Positions 4,929 through 12,393 of a DNA stretch of 32,000 nucleotides are shown here, in pieces. Numbering within the stretch: the stretch's first letter is position 1; each line of letters opens with the position of its first letter. The notes under the pieces are model-generated. The model was not told where the DNA came from. It was given only the letters and a program-made list of their open reading frames with translations, and searched no databases. The DNA lies in assembly GCA_048938295.1 (NCBI GenBank), contig JBHLMI010000002.1, positions 1 through 32,000 of the forward strand. Direction: 5' to 3'. The position numbers and the translations under genes were made by a program. This DNA is from Promethearchaeota archaeon (lineage in GTDB: Archaea > Asgardarchaeota > Hermodarchaeia > Hermodarchaeales > Hermodarchaeaceae).

Positions 4929-4984
4929 CAGGGCAAAGAATGAGGTAACTTCTCTTGCCAAACAGTACTTTGGACGTTCTGAAG

Positions 4985-5923
4985 ATGGCTAAGCGAATTG
5001 TTGTTGCCATTGGTGGAAATTCCCTCATTAAGGATGCAGCACGTAAAACTGTGCAAGACCAATATACAGCTGCAGCAGAAACCGTTCCCCACATCGTTGA
5101 CTTGGTGGAACAGGGATGGGATGTCGCGATTACTCATGGTAACGGTCCCCAAGTAGGATTTATCCTTCGGCGCTCTGAGTTGGCTGCTGGTGAACTCCAT
5201 GAGGTACCCCTTGATTTTTGTGGCGCTGACACACAGGGGGCAATCGGGTATATGCTTCAGCAGATTCTTCTGAGCGAATTTCATCGACGCAAAATAAACA
5301 AACTGCCCGTAACTGTCGTTACCCAAGTCTTAGTAGACGCTAACGACCCTGCCTTCACTCACCCCAACAAGCCCATTGGCTCCTTCATGGATCAAGAGAT
5401 GGCGGAACGCCGAACCGAAGAAGGCTGGCACGTTGTCGAAGATGCAGGAAGAGGATGGCGCCGTGTGGTTCCATCACCAATTCCGAAAAAAATTATTGAA
5501 GCCCAAGTTGTGGACAACCTACTTGACGACGGATTCATTGTGATTACGGTTGGTGGTGGGGGTATTCCAGTGGTGCAGGAGAATGGAATCCTGAAAGGCG
5601 TAGCCGCTGTGATTGATAAGGATCGGGCCTCAGCTCTGCTTTGTAAGGCATTGGGTGCGAAGGGATTTCTCATCTCGACGTCGATTGACAAAGTATATCT
5701 AAACTTTGGCAAAGCTAATCAGCGCCCAATCGACCGAATGACAGTCAAGGAGGCAAAACAGTATTTGAAAGAGGGACACTTTGCCCCTGGATCCATGGCT
5801 CCGAAGATCGAATCTGTTATTCAGTTCCTTGAGGAGGGAGGCGAATTTGCCATCATCACTTCTCCTGAAAACATCGCCCGAGCAATTCTTGGCAAAGCCG
5901 GTACTCGCATTCTCGCGGAGTAG
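4985..5923 (+). CDS. arcC: Carbamate kinase
   Basis: RIVVAIGGNSL, THGNGPQVG, GADTQGAIGY, KPIG, GWRRVVPSP, GGGGIPV, AVIDKD, GSMAPK. Start placed at ATG 4985 rather than the track's 4955. Confidence 0.95.
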   Translation: MAKRIVVAIGGNSLIKDAARKTVQDQYTAAAETVPHIVDLVEQGWDVAITHGNGPQVGFILRRSELAAGELHEVPLDFCGADTQGAIGYMLQQILLSEFHRRKINKLPVTVVTQVLVDANDPAFTHPNKPIGSFMDQEMAERRTEEGWHVVEDAGRGWRRVVPSPIPKKIIEAQVVDNLLDDGFIVITVGGGGIPVVQENGILKGVAAVIDKDRASALLCKALGAKGFLISTSIDKVYLNFGKANQRPIDRMTVKEAKQYLKEGHFAPGSMAPKIESVIQFLEEGGEFAIITSPENIARAILGKAGTRILAE

Positions 5924-5983: not shown

Positions 5984-6823
5984 TTGGCTACAATGATTTC
6001 AGAAGTGGTAAAGATTGTACAGGAGTACTCTGTTGAAGAAGTGCTACGGCTCTTAGAGCGAGTCCAACCATTACAGCACCAGGAACCCCGATTACTTCAA
6101 CTCCCTAAAAACCCACTGCTCTTCGTTGGGGACACCCATGGCGACTGGGAGTCGACTCAACGGCTACTGACGCAGTTTTGGCACACGCCAACGGTTTTTG
6201 TATTCCTTGGGGATTATGTCGACCGCGGACCCTTCCAAATTGAAAATATTAATCTGCTTCTATATCTGAAAACCATGGCTCCGAATCGACTGATGCTTTT
6301 GCGGGGGAACCATGAAACTCCGAGTATAAATCGTGCCTATGGTTTCTTTGACGCAGTTCAATTCTCTTTAGGGGATGTAATCTCGCATTATTGGAAGGTT
6401 TTCGGGGATCTGCCCTTAGCGGCTATTAGCTTTCAGCATAAAATCTTCGCTGTGCATGGAGGCATCCCTGAAGCATTAAACGAAGTGCAGGATATCGATT
6501 CGCTACCTAGGGAAGTTGAGCCCGTTCATCCAATTGCATTTCAGCTGCTTTGGAATGATCCAAGCGAAACCGTGAAAGGGTTTAGATCATCGATGCGGGG
6601 AGGACGAATCAGAACCTTTGGTCAGGATATCACGGAAGAATTCATGGCTAAAAATAAGTTGGATCTCATTGTTCGAGCTCATGAGGTCTTCCCCCATGGA
6701 TTTCATGAATACTTTGATGGACGTATTATGAGTCTGTTCTCCTGTCGAGAGTATCGTGGACCTATTGCTGGGAAAGCACTCTACGTGGCTTCATCCGGTG
6801 AGCGAAAGCTTGTGCCCGTGTGA
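5984..6823 (+). CDS. PPP-family Ser/Thr protein phosphatase (PP1/PP2A-like metallophosphoesterase)
   Basis: GDTHG, GDYVDRG, RGNHE, HGGI, LLWNDP and RAHE are all present in order; FSCREY replaces FSAPNY. Start TTG 5984 or ATG 5993. Confidence 0.9.
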   Translation: MATMISEVVKIVQEYSVEEVLRLLERVQPLQHQEPRLLQLPKNPLLFVGDTHGDWESTQRLLTQFWHTPTVFVFLGDYVDRGPFQIENINLLLYLKTMAPNRLMLLRGNHETPSINRAYGFFDAVQFSLGDVISHYWKVFGDLPLAAISFQHKIFAVHGGIPEALNEVQDIDSLPREVEPVHPIAFQLLWNDPSETVKGFRSSMRGGRIRTFGQDITEEFMAKNKLDLIVRAHEVFPHGFHEYFDGRIMSLFSCREYRGPIAGKALYVASSGERKLVPV

Positions 6824-6826
6824 CCA

Positions 6827-7183
6827 CTATTTCAGTTTTATGGAAGTAATGGCTCTTGCTAGGTCGTTTTTGGTGAATGGTTTTTCGAGGAATCCGATTC
6901 CTTCAGCTGAGGCCACATCTTTGCCAAGAAAATGTGTTCCCATCAGAATCACAGCAAACCCTTGACGTTTCAGGCTCTTGATGAAATCGATGGTTTGTGC
7001 CCGACTAAGCCAATAATCGACGAGGAGTACATTTGGAGGCGTCTCAGCTGCGTCTAATGCATGGTGAAAACTTCCCAAGTGATCCACACCAGGACACACA
7101 ATAAATCCTGCTTGAGTAATTAGCATCTCAATTGACCGGCGTAAAGACCCTTGAGGAGTAATGACCATCACAGCCGTTGCCAA
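6827..7183 (-). CDS. Stand-alone atypical response-regulator receiver domain
   Basis: CheY-like pattern with VLLVDYW (phosphoacceptor Asp) and FLEKPF, but the beta1 acidic pair is TP and the beta4 Thr/Ser position is Gly. TTG start 1 nt after the upstream stop. Confidence 0.8.
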   Translation of the reverse strand: MATAVMVITPQGSLRRSIEMLITQAGFIVCPGVDHLGSFHHALDAAETPPNVLLVDYWLSRAQTIDFIKSLKRQGFAVILMGTHFLGKDVASAEGIGFLEKPFTKNDLARAITSIKLK

Positions 7184-7184
7184 C

Positions 7185-9224
7185 TCAGTCAGCTCCTAAT
7201 TCCTTCTTAACCTTGCGCGGTTTACGAACTCGAGATTGGTTCGCCTTGGGAAGTAACACTTGTAATAAGGTCCCATATTGTGGATCATCGATTACGATAT
7301 TTGTGACCCTGAATTTACCTCGATAATATTCGACTAAGGCAGGAACCAGAAGGAGATTGGGATTTGCTTTTTGTGGCTGTTCAACATCTTCTCGGAATAA
7401 GAGGACTTTTTCCAGATCGGAGAGAACCCATTTTGGATGGGAAATTTCCACCTGCCAATACTCGATTCCTAACTCAGTGACTTCTGAGAAGGTTACACCT
7501 ATGGTGGTTGAACCTCCACCGACTTGAGTCATGACTAACTGGAAGAGAGGTCGAAAGATTTGTGTAACATACTCATTCACCAAAACGAATGCCTTACTCC
7601 CGGGAAGGGAAAGTGAGATTTGACTAACGGATTCGGGGAAGAGTGTGTGTAATTCATTGATGATTTGAGTAATCACAGACCCCAAATCGGTTCGGCTAAA
7701 CTCAGGTAATGCCTGAATATCGACGAGCCGCAGCAATTGGACGCTTTGGAGAATATTTTGAATTTTGTTTATTTCGGAATGTATCAGGTTCAGGACCTCC
7801 AATCGTTCCTCTGGATTGGATGTGCTCTGACCAACTTCGCTGAGGCTTAGAATGGATTGCAGCCCACTTGTGATCGAGTTATTGAGAATGCCCAGATAAT
7901 AGTCAAGTTTGACTAACTGGGATTTAGAAGGAGCTTGAGGACGCCTTTCAATAACTGTGAATCGGCGTAGCTCTGTACGTACACGACTTAATACATTAAG
8001 GATGTTTGTGAAATTATCTGAAATCCCCTGAAGTTCCGTGAAAACCAAACCAGCCGGCTCCTGGTATGAAATCAATCCTGGCTCCGTGACCGCACTGGTT
8101 TCTATTTCAAGCTGTTCTAGAGGCTGATAAATCAACCGAGCAAAGAAGTACCCAATTCCTCCAACTATTAGTCCAACTATTACGAATCCAATGAGTAACC
8201 CGATGCCAATGCTTTGCAACGCGAACATGGCATCCATGGGGCTTAAAAAAACCAAAAGCACATGACTAGTCAAAGAAACCGTTATAGTGGCGATGAGTGT
8301 CATCACCACGAGCAAAGAAAGGAGTAAGAGAACCCGAGTGATATCTTCGTATTTCACAGACATGGGACGAATGGTGGCCATGTTCTCGAGAGTCTTTCCA
8401 AAAATAGTCAATACTGAAATGAGAAAGAAAAAGATGGCGAAGAGTGTGACCGAATCCGATAGCGACCCGGCATAATAGAAGACTGAAACTGCTTGCCAGC
8501 TCATGGCATACTGGTAAGCAAAGGCGGTATAGCCAAGGATGAGGAAAAGACTAGAAACCACTAGCATCAAGCGGCTGAATCGGCTAATGACCTCTTGTGA
8601 TGGATCCGTGTTGAAGTAAAAAGCCCAAGCAAAGATGGCAGTAAAGAAACCAAGAAGGATTCGCACGCCTGTTCCAATAGCTGGAAGGATTGGCGGTTCG
8701 AAGATGAGATTCATCTGATAAGTCGACAAGATGCACGCTGCAAAGAAGAAGGTGATTAGTAGGTAGCCGGTGATTTGCTGTTTGGACCGCCTACGCTGTT
8801 CAACTGAAACCACGATGAATCCCACAAGTAGGATCAGATTTGCTATGATAGTGATATAGGCCGAGACGTTTGGGTACATGATTGGAAAGCCAAAAAAGAC
8901 GGTTTCAATTAGAAGCCAATAATGTGCCAGGGCACCCAAGAAACTCGCCCCGGCTACAATAAAGACCAATCGTCTAGCAGCCTGATTATGAAATCCTCGA
9001 AGAGCCAAGCATACTCCAAAAATCGTCAAGAATACCATGATGTAGGCATTGATGAGATAGACCCCAGCAATTTGGGGTGTAAAGAATCCAATGACAAGTG
9101 GAAGCACCGCGAGAAGGAATGCAATTGGTGTTGCAATCGCTACGAGTTTTTGGTTATAGCTTCGAAACCAGCGACTGCCTTGAAGCTTTTCTAACACCAC
9201 ACCCGCACTTCCAGACCAAAACAA
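7185..9224 (-). CDS. Multi-pass membrane sensor with HAMP-like linker and degenerate HisKA/HATPase_c (pseudo-histidine kinase)
   Basis: About 9-10 hydrophobic segments, then 'IYQPLEQLE' (HAMP-like) and a C-terminus that follows the HK layout to ...GKFRVTNIVIDDPQYGTLLQVLLPK. H-box LDYYLGILNN has no His; N, G1 and G2 boxes are lost. Start uncertain (TTG 9224 or a nearby downstream GTG). Confidence 0.7.
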   Translation of the reverse strand: MFWSGSAGVVLEKLQGSRWFRSYNQKLVAIATPIAFLLAVLPLVIGFFTPQIAGVYLINAYIMVFLTIFGVCLALRGFHNQAARRLVFIVAGASFLGALAHYWLLIETVFFGFPIMYPNVSAYITIIANLILLVGFIVVSVEQRRRSKQQITGYLLITFFFAACILSTYQMNLIFEPPILPAIGTGVRILLGFFTAIFAWAFYFNTDPSQEVISRFSRLMLVVSSLFLILGYTAFAYQYAMSWQAVSVFYYAGSLSDSVTLFAIFFFLISVLTIFGKTLENMATIRPMSVKYEDITRVLLLLSLLVVMTLIATITVSLTSHVLLVFLSPMDAMFALQSIGIGLLIGFVIVGLIVGGIGYFFARLIYQPLEQLEIETSAVTEPGLISYQEPAGLVFTELQGISDNFTNILNVLSRVRTELRRFTVIERRPQAPSKSQLVKLDYYLGILNNSITSGLQSILSLSEVGQSTSNPEERLEVLNLIHSEINKIQNILQSVQLLRLVDIQALPEFSRTDLGSVITQIINELHTLFPESVSQISLSLPGSKAFVLVNEYVTQIFRPLFQLVMTQVGGGSTTIGVTFSEVTELGIEYWQVEISHPKWVLSDLEKVLLFREDVEQPQKANPNLLLVPALVEYYRGKFRVTNIVIDDPQYGTLLQVLLPKANQSRVRKPRKVKKELGAD

Positions 9225-9321: not shown

Positions 9322-10530
9322 CTAGTTTTCTGTAGGATTTAGGGAACAGACTTCCAAGAGAGTTTGCTGGAACTTGTCTAAGGTTTGCTGGAAGTCATCA
9401 CGGACTTCAAGGTATAAATGATTGCGTTGCAGTTCCATGGTGTACAAAATTTGGACTAACTCACTTTGAAGAAAATTAGCAATTTCCCGATAAGCATCGA
9501 CTAGAGTAAGCATCTGTTGGGAATATGCGCTATACTCTAAGAATAAGGAATACGCCTGCGAAACGCCTAGGAGCATACCCTGACAATCCCGGATGTGCGA
9601 TTCATAAGTCTTCAAGGACGCTCCCTGACGTATCCTGTCCCGCATCTCTAGTAATTCTAGATGCGAGCCTTCAAAGATGCTCGAAAATAATGTGGTGTGA
9701 TGGCGTTCATAGATCCACCGGGTGCGATTCGAAAGGCTGACATGCTCTTTAAAGAGTTCGTGGACAGCCTTGAAGGAAGTAATCTTTTGGTCAAATTCTT
9801 CCAGTTCTGCTGTACCAAAATATCCTGCTGACTCGGTAAGAATGAATGCAGGATGGTTCTGTGCATCCGTGACAAAGAACTCGACCGCTTCCACTATGTG
9901 GTTTACCTTTTTGTTCAAATCTTCATTAGCTAATGCTGTTTCCACTTTTGCATATCCATCTAGTCGTAGCTGTATCGATTCATCTGATGTTGCATACTGG
10001 AGTACATCACAAAAACGTTGCATGCTTTCACTGTAGGTTTGCTCCACGGCTTCCATCAGTTTTGGCAGGTAGTCAGCTAATCGCTTGATATTGCGTTCTA
10101 CAGCTTGAAATTCATCGAGAAACTGGCGAAGAAACCAATCTACACCCTTTTGATCTAAATCATTGATCTGAATCTTTACCCGTGGGTCACTAGATGCACG
10201 AACCATTTCAGCGAACATGCGGTGGTCAGTTATTCCGATAGATGCAAAGAGCGTTTCCATACTTCGACGAACGCTCCGATAATAAGCATAATAAATTAAT
10301 AAATTATCGACATATTCGTCAATGTATCCGATTAATGCGTTTGTATCTACTAAATGATGTTTGAGCTCAGGAGATTTTTCCTGAAAATACCGGATGAGCC
10401 GTTGATTGGCGTGTTCTTCAATTACTCTGGTTCGTTCATCATACTTCTCACTTAGGGTCAGATATTGCTCGAGGAGTTCCCAGATTAGTGCGGGTGTTTT
10501 AATTCCTGAATCTGAAGCATTTTCATTCAT
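9322..10530 (-). CDS. Hypothetical all-alpha / coiled-coil-rich protein (402 aa)
   Basis: Long open frame with amphipathic heptad-like periodicity, few Pro/Gly and no TM segment; starts 37 nt downstream of the Rab stop. Confidence 0.75.
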   Translation of the reverse strand: MNENASDSGIKTPALIWELLEQYLTLSEKYDERTRVIEEHANQRLIRYFQEKSPELKHHLVDTNALIGYIDEYVDNLLIYYAYYRSVRRSMETLFASIGITDHRMFAEMVRASSDPRVKIQINDLDQKGVDWFLRQFLDEFQAVERNIKRLADYLPKLMEAVEQTYSESMQRFCDVLQYATSDESIQLRLDGYAKVETALANEDLNKKVNHIVEAVEFFVTDAQNHPAFILTESAGYFGTAELEEFDQKITSFKAVHELFKEHVSLSNRTRWIYERHHTTLFSSIFEGSHLELLEMRDRIRQGASLKTYESHIRDCQGMLLGVSQAYSLFLEYSAYSQQMLTLVDAYREIANFLQSELVQILYTMELQRNHLYLEVRDDFQQTLDKFQQTLLEVCSLNPTEN

Positions 10531-10567: not shown

Positions 10568-11116
10568 CTATTCCTTTGACCCTTCTTTGGCAAGTTCATT
10601 AGAAAGAATAAGTTCTGCAAGCTTGTGAAAGACCTCATTGACGCCGTAATCAGTTTTCGCACTGGTTTCAAAATATTGCATTCCTTTTTGAGATGCATAA
10701 ACACGCAGTTCATCTGTAGTAATGACCCTGGACTCGAGCAGGTCAATTTTATTCCCTACCAAGACGATTGGCACATCTGGACCTGAAAACTTGTGAATTT
10801 GTTCTAGCCATTTATCAACATTAACAAAGCTTTGTCGCACGGTGATGTCAAAGACCAAAAGGGCTCCTCTCGCACCTCGGTAGTAGATGGGCCTAACGCC
10901 TGCGTACCGCTCTTGTCCTGCTGTATCCCATGCTTGGAGCTTAACAATATAGTTGTTTAGGGGTAGGGATTTAACAATGAAATCAACGCCGAGAGTTGAA
11001 ATGTAGCCATCGGTAAATGTTCCATAAGCGAACCGTGTCGTGAGACTGGTTTTACCGACTTCAGCGTCACCAACGAGTACTACTTTGAATAGATAATCAA
11101 ATGCATCGTGTGACAT
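10568..11116 (-). CDS. Rab-like small GTPase (Ras superfamily)
   Basis: G1 GDAEVGKT, G2/RabF1 TLGVDF, RabF2 KLQAW, G3 WDTAGQE, RabF4 YYRGA, RabF5 LVFDIT, G4 NKID, G5 ETSAK; no C-terminal cysteines. Confidence 0.95.
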   Translation of the reverse strand: MSHDAFDYLFKVVLVGDAEVGKTSLTTRFAYGTFTDGYISTLGVDFIVKSLPLNNYIVKLQAWDTAGQERYAGVRPIYYRGARGALLVFDITVRQSFVNVDKWLEQIHKFSGPDVPIVLVGNKIDLLESRVITTDELRVYASQKGMQYFETSAKTDYGVNEVFHKLAELILSNELAKEGSKE

Positions 11117-11232: not shown

Positions 11233-12393
11233 TTAGGGAGGTAGGTACTCATATCCACGGTACCCTTTACGTCGCTGTATTTTTTGCATGTCATATAATT
11301 TTTTGAGCTCATTGGACGCAGTGCCTTTCGTGATGCCAATTTCTTCAGCTACGACTGCTGATGTGACTCGTTTCAGTTCTTTTGTTATGGTTATAATTTC
11401 CCGTTGAGTGGCGGTGAGTTCATCGAACTCTTCGAACCAAATCTCGTCTTCCTCTTCTGGACTCGTTTCAATAAATCGTGTCTGATCTATAGTACTGGGT
11501 GCTAGCGTGGTAACCGGTGGTGGACTGGGTCGCTGTTTGATGACTTGTTGCACAAATTCCCGCGTGATGCGGTCTCCGGCAGGTGTATCGTCTTGAAAGG
11601 CTAGAGAGATTATATTTTCACAGAATCGTAAAGTACTGCGTGGAAAACCACGAGTATGGAGATGAATTTCTTCAATAGCCTCAGCGTTGAAGGGCGTCAG
11701 TCCTTTTCCACCAAAATGCTGGATGCGTTCGCGGATGAGCTGCTCTGTTTCTTTGGCTGTTAGGATTTCGATGCCTTCAGGACCTTCGGTCTCTAAGGCG
11801 AATTCTAATGTGACTCGTTCCGCTATCGGTGGAAAGATACTTGTTAGAGCTCTAGAGAATCCAGTTAGGCCAGCCATGAATACTACAACGGCAGGTAAAT
11901 CGCTCAGAACCCGTAACCATCGGACGGTTTTCCGCTTCTCCGTTTCGATGGTCTCTGAATCGTCATGTGTCAATGCAAGTGACTGACTATCATCAATTAG
12001 CAGGACGATCCGTTGGTTACTTTGTTGGTGGAACTCATGAACCTTAGCTGCCATTGCATCGACGAGCGTGGGAACGATTTTATTTTTTGCCATGAAGTGG
12101 TGATTCATCAGTGAAATCAATGCGTTGCTTAATATCGATGAGTTCAAGGGTTCAGAAATGAGAAGAGGAATCATACCCTTGGATTTCGCCAGAGAATCAT
12201 TTAACCACCGCAGTATGTGGGTTTTCCCGGTTCCACGGCCTCCTTCGATGAGAATGATGTTGCCGGTTCGCAGTTGAATTGTCAAGGGAGTGAGTAATCG
12301 TTTTTGCCCAGCGAAGACTTCGGGCAGAACATCAATACGAAATGGAAAATCCGACCAGCCTAGACTCTTCAATCGCTCGTCGAAAGCGAACAT
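11233..12393 (-). CDS. ExeA/GspA-like AAA ATPase with C-terminal winged HTH
   Basis: N-terminal LGWSDFPF, Walker A GGRGTGKT, Walker B LLIDDSQ, AERV (Arg finger), TRGFPR lid motif; C-terminal LTATQREII...VAEEIGITKGTASNELKKLYDMQKIQR wHTH. SD AGGTGA upstream. Confidence 0.8.
   Translation of the reverse strand: MFAFDERLKSLGWSDFPFRIDVLPEVFAGQKRLLTPLTIQLRTGNIILIEGGRGTGKTHILRWLNDSLAKSKGMIPLLISEPLNSSILSNALISLMNHHFMAKNKIVPTLVDAMAAKVHEFHQQSNQRIVLLIDDSQSLALTHDDSETIETEKRKTVRWLRVLSDLPAVVVFMAGLTGFSRALTSIFPPIAERVTLEFALETEGPEGIEILTAKETEQLIRERIQHFGGKGLTPFNAEAIEEIHLHTRGFPRSTLRFCENIISLAFQDDTPAGDRITREFVQQVIKQRPSPPPVTTLAPSTIDQTRFIETSPEEEDEIWFEEFDELTATQREIITITKELKRVTSAVVAEEIGITKGTASNELKKLYDMQKIQRRKGYRGYEYLPP

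Follow-up and report, generated by a model that had tools for sequence, protein, structure and literature searches.

A probable pseudo-two-component pair, maintained by selection in one family of Asgard archaea and derived from a working kinase and regulator

Introduction

Why would an archaeon keep a sensor kinase and a receiver that have both lost the residues used in phosphotransfer? The question is raised by two adjacent genes near the start of contig JBHLMI010000002.1 of a Promethearchaeota archaeon (assembly GCA_048938295.1; Asgardarchaeota, Hermodarchaeaceae), of which positions 1 to 32,000 were analysed; this whole stretch of 32,000 nucleotides is called the window. One gene encodes a polytopic membrane protein whose cytoplasmic part resembles a histidine kinase, and the other encodes a small receiver-like protein. 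The host genome is 2.5 Mb in 66 contigs and is 91.6% complete. The datasets listed for this stretch are sediment, soil and mangrove DNA metagenomes, with no RNA set among them. The two genes are:

7185-9200, minus strand: pseudo-histidine-kinase gene, 671 amino acids from a GTG at 9200 (679 amino acids in the longest open reading frame, to a TTG at 9224)
6827-7183, minus strand: single-domain pseudo-receiver gene, 118 amino acids, TTG start

The GTG at 9200 is the start used by the orthologues and by the database copy. Residues of the pseudokinase are numbered here in the 679-residue frame that begins at the TTG at 9224. The TTG of the receiver gene lies 1 nt past the kinase stop and is preceded by AGGAG 9 nt upstream, and because of this spacing and this motif the two genes look translationally coupled.

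Pseudo-histidine kinases and pseudo-receivers are established concepts (PMC12632262; PMC4211667; PMC12963549). An earlier note on this DNA, made from the sequence alone, had proposed that the two proteins are a sensor and adaptor pair that works independently of phosphorylation. The analysis described here makes it probable that they form a pseudo-two-component pair, maintained by selection in one family of Asgard archaea (Hermodarchaeota-type), which signals by binding rather than by phosphate and which comes from a working ancestor.

Kinship with sensor histidine kinases

The kinase relationship of the 671/679-residue protein is revealed only by profiles and structure. In a single-sequence Pfam search HisKA reached 12.3 bits (threshold 26.9; E 0.18) and HATPase_c was not matched, and single-sequence searches of NCBIfam and of PDB sequences gave nothing significant. 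None of its 23 orthologues carries a precomputed Pfam domain, and the only name given to them is 'hypothetical protein'. A family profile built from these 23 orthologues was searched against 1.84 billion representative proteins and found 1,956 proteins at E<=0.001, of which more than 1,900 lie beyond the family and match its DHp-CA part only. Seven non-family matches were sampled (E 1e-25 to 1e-17). All seven contain PAS or HAMP together with a Pfam HATPase_c domain, and one is annotated as a Methanocella histidine kinase. Judged by these profile scores, the likeness of the family to kinases far exceeds chance. When the family was compared with one HAMP-kinase by hhalign, the two aligned over 252 columns with 97.5% probability (E 7e-12). 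The profile reached just E 0.37 against PDB sequences, with the DHp domain of ERS1, and this match served for the alignment register only.

The AlphaFold 2 (AF2) model of the last 314 residues (pLDDT 74.5) has two long DHp helices, followed by strands and helices in the order of the Bergerat fold. Foldseek matches this model to HK853, HprS, CusS, AdeS, RetS and DivL at E ~1e-10, with a TM-score of up to 0.79 when normalised by target length. The hhalign match, the profile matches to real kinases and the Foldseek matches establish that the protein is a true homologue of sensor histidine kinases. Its cytoplasmic part is divided as follows:

7950-8126, minus strand: HAMP-like linker, residues 367-425, from QPLEQLE to FTELQGISDNFTNIL; mean conservation 0.80
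7716-7925, minus strand: DHp-like two-helix hairpin, residues 434-503; AF2 helices 69-102 and 106-137 of the C-terminal model, with Foldseek matches to kinase DHp-CA structures
7245-7715, minus strand: CA-like (HATPase_c-fold) domain without ATP-binding motifs, residues 504-660; Bergerat-fold order of secondary structure, Foldseek E ~1e-10

The second helix of the linker is aligned by hhalign with the second HAMP helix of P0063, a Pfam-confirmed HAMP kinase. Pfam HAMP (PF00672) was not detected in the linker, the first part of which has low pLDDT in the AF2 model. Past the final LLP strand there is a C-terminal tail (7185-7244, minus strand) that is poorly conserved in sequence, yet rich in Arg and Lys across orthologues (e.g. 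RVRKPRKVKK).

Loss of the catalytic residues

Canonical kinases bind ATP-Mg through the N-box Asn, the G1 Asp and a Gly-rich lid, phosphotransfer uses the His, and phosphorylation of the receiver needs a metal on its acidic pair (PMC12632262). Where these residues would stand in the window was determined by aligning the family with the true kinases closest to it and with five kinases that the genome itself encodes, and by hhalign. The remnants are:

7878-7907, minus strand: H-box remnant LDYYLGILNN, with Asn449 (7878-7880) at the His position
7533-7562, minus strand: N-box remnant QIFRPLFQLV, with Pro559 and Leu563 at the two Asn positions
7416-7445, minus strand: G1-box remnant ISHPKWVLSD, in which DxGxG has become His596-Pro-Lys598-Trp-Val600
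7344-7364, minus strand: G2-box and ATP-lid remnant NPNLLLV, in which GxGxGL has become Lys619-Ala-Asn-Pro-Asn-Leu624, inside the nearly invariant EQPQKANPNLLLVP

In each of the 23 kinase orthologues other residues stand in place of the His, of both Asn of the N-box, and of G1 and G2. The phospho-acceptor His of the SHDIxNxxQ motif is Asn449 here, without exception among the 23, and no other conserved His is found in their DHp region. The four remnant strings had already been located by the earlier note, and its register for the N, G1 and G2 boxes agrees with the alignments and with hhalign. Its statement that the H-box His is lost also holds, but the Gly that it had placed at that position is four residues away from it. 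In true kinases the counterpart of Gly445 is the conserved Asp at His-4. Three independent alignments, to true kinases, to ERS1 through the PDB profile and by hhalign, give Asn449 as the residue in the His position.

From these replacements we infer that canonical ATP-Mg binding by the cytoplasmic part has been lost, and a His that could be phosphorylated is missing from it. Transfer from His to Asp between the pseudokinase and the receiver appears very unlikely, because the N-box Asn, the G1 Asp, the Gly-rich lid, the His and the acidic pair of the receiver are all lost.

The receiver-like partner

The receiver frame matches Pfam Response_reg (PF00072) with 27.6 bits (E 3.5e-6), under the cut-off of 30.2, and most of its orthologues carry a precomputed PF00072 match. 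A profile of the receiver family matches PhoB and other receiver structures at E 1e-5. The active-site positions were assigned by alignment with structures of PhoB and with the three canonical receivers that the genome encodes, and invariance was assessed over 23 receiver orthologues:

7154-7159, minus strand: Thr9-Pro10 at the position of the Mg-binding acidic pair (DD); residue 9 is Thr or Ser, and Pro10 is invariant
7016-7018, minus strand: Asp56, the retained phospho-acceptor position, invariant
6935-6940, minus strand: Gly82-Thr83, with Gly at the canonical Thr/Ser column (end of beta-4) and an invariant Thr one residue later
6878-6883, minus strand: Lys101-Pro102, with the conserved Lys retained, invariant

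The aromatic Phe98 is also kept and invariant, and residue 82 is Ser in one distant orthologue. In the genome's three canonical receivers the corresponding residues are DD (one of them has the second Asp only), Asp, Ser or Thr, and Lys. It had been claimed from the sequence that the receiver keeps Asp and Lys and lacks the acidic pair, and the alignments bear this out. The further claim that the switch Thr/Ser is gone is right for the canonical column, where Gly82 stands, with the invariant Thr83 next to it. Under the definition in PMC12632262, by which at least one of DD, D, T and K is lost, the protein is a pseudo-receiver, and with Asp56 present it is not an aspartate-less one. Its phosphorylation is judged very unlikely because the metal-binding pair is lost, though Asp and Lys are kept.

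Evidence for selection

Are these two genes merely decaying? The reading frames are intact in all orthologues. In the window neither frame (7185-9224 and 6827-7183, minus strand) has a frameshift or a stop, as the earlier note had reported. Matches in a second genus of the family, g2, had been flagged for a stop inside (1 TAG); the L018 match runs two codons beyond the real stop, and the open reading frames of L018 and L019 are intact.

The ratio of nonsynonymous to synonymous substitution (dN/dS) was calculated from one pair, with the closest orthologue on a fetched contig (locus L012, 87% identity). The kinase-like gene has a ratio of 0.137 and the receiver gene one of 0.344, and the neighbouring genes have values of 0.04-0.11. 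Within the kinase-like gene the ratio is 0.08 for the membrane module, 0.22 for the HAMP and DHp parts together, 0.18 for the CA-like domain and 0.04 for the 43 codons between the former G1 and G2 boxes. In more distant pairs the synonymous sites are saturated and the proteins are still about 60% identical. With values of 0.14 and 0.34, not near 1, both genes are by this measure under purifying selection and simple decay is excluded, which had been anticipated from the intact frames. The protein thus fits the definition of a pseudo-histidine kinase of Collins and Childers (2021), in the form in which PMC12632262 cites it, as a kinase homologue that has by sequence lost at least one kinase function and has been retained (dN/dS 0.14).

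Column conservation is highest in the former G1-F region (0.86), in the former lid and G2 box (0.87; nearly invariant EQPQKANPxLLLVP) and in the last strands (0.84). The former lid and G2 box is the most conserved segment of the whole protein. This pattern suggests that the former ATP pocket was remodelled and then frozen, as would be expected of a new binding surface.

That the two genes are functionless relics of a two-component system was also considered. All the catalytic motifs are lost, and the receiver has disappeared altogether from two lineages, as decay would have it. The intact frames in all orthologues, the dN/dS values, the roughly 60% amino acid identity at distances where synonymous sites are saturated, and the near invariance of the replaced motifs themselves already contradict this explanation, which we find scarcely credible.

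Descent from a working kinase and regulator

In a survey of 301 genomes sampled across the phylum, the kinase-like protein was found in 15 of the 18 other genomes of its own GTDB family (12/14 in the genus, 3/4 in the second genus), as a single copy, and a search of 283 genomes from 29 other families did not find it. All 12 genomes of the genus with the kinase-like gene have the receiver gene directly downstream of it. In the two genus genomes that lack the kinase-like gene (75% and 84% complete), the receiver gene was not found either. At G096:C73:6391-7320 the pseudokinase match lies in an open frame of 1,426 amino acids. This length suggests that the frame is continuous with that of the gene upstream, which in several relatives encodes an M28 peptidase; the cause could be a fusion or merely a stop-less spacer.

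The profile search also returned deeper full-length relatives, with 32-36% identity, the same architecture and the same syntenic slot. Around them AAA_22 and Ras come first, followed in some cases by the gene for a 402/427-residue protein and in some by an M28 peptidase or a radical-SAM gene. Next are the kinase-like gene and usually that of the receiver, and the row is closed by the Metallophos and amino-acid-kinase genes, which are convergent with it. Among these relatives is P0051, from a hydrothermal-vent metagenome. It occupies the same slot with the full membrane architecture and keeps the His (SHEIRN), the N-box (NLLRNA), G1 (DRGLG) and G2 (GLGL), and its HATPase_c domain scores 56.6 bits, over the Pfam threshold. 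The receiver of P0051 has Glu-Pro, Asp, Thr and Lys and is over the Pfam threshold as well. The gene of the P0051 lineage encodes a 607-residue orthologue (L020:8001-10232, also L021), the one member found that is, by its motifs, catalytically intact.

A maximum-likelihood tree, rooted on true kinases through the DHp-CA columns alone, places P0051 as sister to all the His-less forms (support 99/96), and the His-less clade is compatible with a single loss. Because P0051 is intact, lies in the same slot and branches first, motifs, synteny and tree together trace the pair to a functional histidine kinase and response regulator at this locus. The remaining lineages form a ladder. In the second genus the G1 Asp, one Gly of G1 and the first Asn of the N-box are still present, and the HATPase_c domain still scores 30 bits. 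P0049 keeps the N-box Asn, and the genus of the window has lost all the ATP-box residues. To judge from these residues, the ATP boxes were eroded stepwise. The residue at the His position is, by lineage, Ser or Tyr, Tyr, Asn, Arg and Asn.

In the earlier note, orthologues with the His and the N and G boxes were to count against its proposal. The 23 genus-level orthologues have none of these, but the deep positional orthologue P0051 keeps them. The loss of the motifs is thus, by the sequences compared, specific to a lineage and was followed by long retention rather than decay. For the most part, the conditions that the earlier note had set for its own refutation turn out in its favour.

The receiver has a different history. 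There is no receiver gene beside the kinase-like gene in the second genus (L018:2173-4140, L019:2139-4250) or in P0050 (L014:8001-10078), and none was found elsewhere in the genomes of the second genus (E<=1e-12). The receiver was therefore lost at least once, and the pseudokinase stayed.

The membrane input

The N-terminal part of the pseudokinase is one feature:

8127-9158, minus strand: ten-helix membrane input module, residues 23-366; TM2-TM8 form a bundle that may resemble that of 7TM receptors, and the TM9-TM10 hairpin leads into the linker

The AF2 model of residues 1-372 (pLDDT 85, pTM 0.83) contains ten transmembrane (TM) helices joined by very short loops. Positively charged loops (e.g. 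EQRRRSK) are on the same side as the linker, so by the positive-inside rule the N-terminus and the HAMP-like segment would be cytoplasmic, with nearly nothing exposed outside. With ten helices and almost no external loops, the modelled protein probably senses something within or at the membrane, or a membrane partner. What kind of module is this? No Pfam HisKA_7TM or 7TMR match was found in the pseudokinase, and a Foldseek search of the membrane module against the PDB gave no match at E<0.02. VIA-align places TM2-TM8 on 7TM/GPCR-like bundles (Z 10-12.9, root-mean-square deviation 3.3-4.4, 184-197 residues), within the range that is common for helical bundles. The ESM Atlas contains predicted membrane modules of similar structure (TM-score 0.51-0.60) in front of prokaryotic guanylate cyclases, GGDEF/EAL proteins, archaeal kinases and ANF-receptor proteins. 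These predicted matches fit a generic membrane sensor input, and the module may belong to an unnamed, widespread type of 7TM sensor.

The gene neighbourhood

The pseudokinase and receiver genes end a row of minus-strand genes, the order of which is AAA_22, the Ras/Rab-like GTPase, a 402-residue protein, the polytopic membrane pseudokinase and the receiver. The other genes of the row, and those that face it, are:

11233-12393, minus strand: AAA_22 ATPase gene, at the head of the co-directional row
10568-11116, minus strand: Rab/Ras-like GTPase gene (Pfam Ras, E 5.7e-57), co-directional with the pair
9322-10530, minus strand: gene for a 402-residue helical protein without a known family; it separates the Rab gene from the pseudokinase gene
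5984-6823, plus strand: Metallophos (calcineurin-like phosphoesterase) gene (Pfam Metallophos, E 1.6e-28)
4955-5923, plus strand: carbamate-kinase-like gene, which converges on the minus-strand row together with the Metallophos gene

It had been stated that the pair is directly downstream of the Rab gene. In the window this is not so, as the 402-residue gene lies between them. The Rab gene is syntenic and co-directional with the pair in all relatives that have upstream DNA, the intervening genes vary, and in one relative the Rab gene is 74 nt upstream. Synteny across the family extends over about 15 kb around the pair and takes in metabolic genes. The adjacency of the Rab gene was considered as evidence of function and was set aside as uninformative, the whole region being syntenic within the sole family of carriers. 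The kinase gene is preceded by a spacer of 97 nt, in which A/T-rich, TATA-like stretches were seen by eye; the inspection is not decisive, and the gene may have a promoter of its own.

The 402-residue protein is strongly conserved wherever it is present (93% identity and dN/dS 0.07 in comparison with L012), and its gene is absent from L003, L006 and L014. A Peptidase_M28/Big_7 gene of about 680 residues follows the 402-residue gene in L001, L013 and L022, and L006 and L014 have the peptidase without the 402-residue gene. The Metallophos gene is convergent with the receiver gene, with 3 nt between the two gene ends, and holds the same position in every relative examined, including those without a receiver.

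How the pair may work

If phosphate is not passed, how could such a pair carry a signal? In the explanation that we consider probable, a signal at the membrane would pass through the HAMP-like linker and reshape the dimer of DHp-like and CA-like parts. The reshaped part would then alter its hold on, or its release of, the receiver-like protein or other partners. The new binding site would probably be the most conserved surface, that of the former ATP pocket and lid, and information would travel by binding and not by phosphotransfer from His to Asp. Such a conformational relay is suggested because the scaffold persists, the genes are tightly coupled, the two proteins strictly co-occur in the genus and the ATP pocket is frozen. 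The binding of kinase and receiver, the input signal and the downstream target form the conjectural part of the explanation. Of the earlier proposal of a phosphorylation-independent pair, the sequence half stands, in that both partners lack the phosphotransfer motifs across 23 kinase and 23 receiver orthologues, and the role as a scaffold or relay stays a suggestion.

Prediction of the complex, which had been put forward as a check, lends weak support. Two DHp-CA copies with the receiver scored 0.57 and the best control 0.00; at least 94% of the contacts were common to the runs, and the pLDDT of the partner was at least 82. The mark applied to such scores was reached by 58 of 80 solved complexes and by two of 110 mismatched pairs, and scores of 0.60 or below came from seven of those 80 and from both of the mismatches that passed. 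The pass of the predicted complex may reflect likeness to solved kinase-regulator complexes only.

Several observations weigh against this explanation. The loss of ATP binding and of phosphorylation is deduced from sequence. The dN/dS values are from a single pair, with the synonymous sites of distant pairs saturated, and the intact-kinase orthologue P0051 is known from a single metagenome sample. The second genus and P0050 keep the pseudokinase without an adjacent receiver, so the function of the kinase-like protein cannot hang wholly on the receiver. Invariant Asp56, Lys101, Phe98 and Thr83 could mean that some phosphorylation-like chemistry persists in the receiver. As to what the pair acts on, three options may be named, and they do not exclude one another: a self-contained pair with some other downstream partner, modulation of the kinases and receivers of the genome, and input to the Rab-like GTPase module.

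The second option can be stated as a rival in its own right that overlaps with the explanation above. The pseudokinase would modulate the real two-component systems of the genome, as RetS does with GacS and RocA with CovS, by forming heterodimers with a true kinase or by titrating a true kinase or regulator, and the pseudo-receiver would be a decoy or competitor. There are candidates for such partners, as the same genome has five kinase-like HATPase_c proteins (plus a sixth with a weaker HATPase_c match) and three canonical receivers, and its kinases share the archaeal type of H-box (xHDxxN) from which the pseudokinase family derives. RetS and DivL are among the best structural matches, and the retention of the pseudokinase in lineages without a receiver also fits. 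However, the identity of the pseudokinase to the genome's own kinases over DHp-CA is only 16-20%, and there is no gene for a true kinase or regulator in the conserved neighbourhood, and we regard this account as unlikely. A remnant of the old chemistry is a different matter. Asp56 could receive phosphate from another kinase or from small-molecule donors while other residues hold the metal, and the His-less protein could be only a phosphatase or a reader, in the way that DivL reads DivK~P (PMC4211667). Besides this precedent there are the invariant residues of the receiver just listed, with Pro102 after the Lys, and the Asn at His+4 of the HisKA phosphatase motif, which is kept in 19 of the 23 orthologues. 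The acidic residue of the same motif at His+1 is Ser or Thr instead, though, and both positions of the acidic pair are non-acidic, the second being an invariant Pro, which makes the protein a pseudo-receiver by the published definition (PMC12632262). Persisting phosphotransfer of this non-canonical kind strikes us as very improbable.

The Rab gene suggests a further account, in which the 7TM-like pseudokinase is a conservon-like membrane receptor that relays a membrane signal to the Rab protein, its putative regulators and the 402-residue protein, with the receiver as an adaptor. The models would be CvnA-CvnD, or RomR-MglA of Myxococcus. A membrane HAMP-kinase that is associated with a Ras-like GTPase and has no response regulator is known (PMC4316618), and receiver-domain proteins that bind MglA-GTP have been described (PMC13408092; MglA binding also in PMC2034494). 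The constant direction and synteny of the Rab gene in every locus with upstream DNA, whatever genes intervene, its distance of 74 nt in one relative and the superposition of TM2-TM8 on 7TM bundles are all in keeping with this. On the other hand, all the carriers belong to one taxonomic family with about 15 kb of synteny, so adjacency is expected from shared descent alone; the spacer before the pseudokinase gene may hold a separate promoter; the 7TM match is in the range of common helical arrangements; and the function of conservons needs kinase activity (PMC4316618), the motifs for which are lost here. We consider this receptor account distinctly unlikely. A bolder form of it, in which the dead kinase core of a 7TM-like archaeal membrane receptor has been turned into a docking platform for the neighbouring Rab-like GTPase module (with the AAA+ protein and the 402-residue protein), and the receiver-like protein serves as the adaptor, would be a long shot. 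If true, it would be an Asgard counterpart of the coupling of receptors to small GTPases, evolved from a two-component system. The pair that signals by binding, with its own or another partner, is the explanation retained below.

Comparison with known systems

The closest parallel to the kinase of the pair is PsmA of Streptomyces venezuelae (PMC12963549). It too has a DHp-CA scaffold that has lost its His and its ATP motifs, is conserved and is confined to one taxonomic family, and its residue at the His position is also reported to vary between lineages (PMC12963549). PsmA works by protein binding, which is the mode proposed, by inference, for the Asgard pseudokinase. In contrast, PsmA is a soluble, PAS-containing hybrid that binds DivIVA and has its receiver fused through a long disordered linker, whereas the archaeal protein has ten TM helices and a separate receiver gene. 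DivL and DivK of Caulobacter crescentus (PDB 4q20; PMC4211667) likewise combine a His-less kinase homologue, which signals by binding, with a single-domain receiver. DivL is matched structurally with a TM-score of up to 0.77, and in two sister lineages the pseudokinase resembles DivL in having Tyr where the His would be. DivK, however, is a true receiver that can be phosphorylated, and the Asgard receiver lacks the metal pair and its CA-like partner domain lacks every ATP box. RetS of Pseudomonas aeruginosa (PDB 6dk7, 7n0e), a top structural match, has the kinase fold and signals without phosphotransfer of its own, but it acts by binding a true kinase, GacS, and it contains 7TMR-DISM and periplasmic domains; for the Asgard protein nothing points to a true kinase as partner.

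On the receiver side, the bacterial pseudo-receivers (FrzS, and the pseudo-receiver (PsR) domains of CikA and ShkA; PMC12632262) also have a receiver fold with an incomplete five-residue active site. The commonest change in PsR domains, a non-acidic second residue of the DD pair, is present in the Asgard receiver. It differs from them in being archaeal and stand-alone, and in being encoded with its cognate pseudokinase. The authors of the 2025 review (PMC12632262) know of no functional study of archaeal pseudo-receivers.

The Streptomyces conservon CvnA-D (PMC4316618) resembles the locus in that accessory proteins and a small GTPase of the Ras superfamily are encoded near a kinase-like membrane protein, whose linker is of the HAMP type. 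It has no receiver, its GTPase is MglA-like and the kinase activity of CvnA matters for the interactions of the Cvn proteins. The Asgard locus, unlike the conservon, has a receiver, has lost the kinase motifs and has a Rab-like GTPase, and its layout is known only within one syntenic family. The nearest relatives of the DHp-CA sequence are archaeal PAS-histidine kinases with the SHDIxNxxQ H-box, for example Methanocella WP_255668319.1 (P0055). These kinases and P0051 differ from the pseudokinase in keeping the His, N, G1 and G2 residues and in passing the Pfam HATPase_c threshold.

A Lokiarchaeum kinase that lacks the catalytic His is noted briefly in a study of Asgard kinases (PMC10343646), and a census of archaeal two-component systems contains non-enzymatic kinase-like proteins of another type, HisKA without HATPase (PMC5847659). 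No published description of the present pseudokinase family was found. It is a new archaeal family within the known idea of pseudokinases, and what is new about it is that both cognate partners are disabled, that the input has ten TM helices and that an intact orthologue survives.

Concluding remarks

Two coupled proteins that are both disabled and are both kept by selection argue that the interaction itself, and not phosphate, carries the signal. At this one locus there is a graded series that runs from an intact to a fully remodelled kinase, a natural experiment on the birth of a pseudokinase, and the turning of an ATP pocket into the most conserved surface is part of what the series displays. 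If the link to the Rab gene were real, hardware of prokaryotic sensing would be wired into a GTPase switch of the eukaryotic type. If it is not, the Hermodarchaeal locus still provides a clean new archaeal family of pseudokinases.

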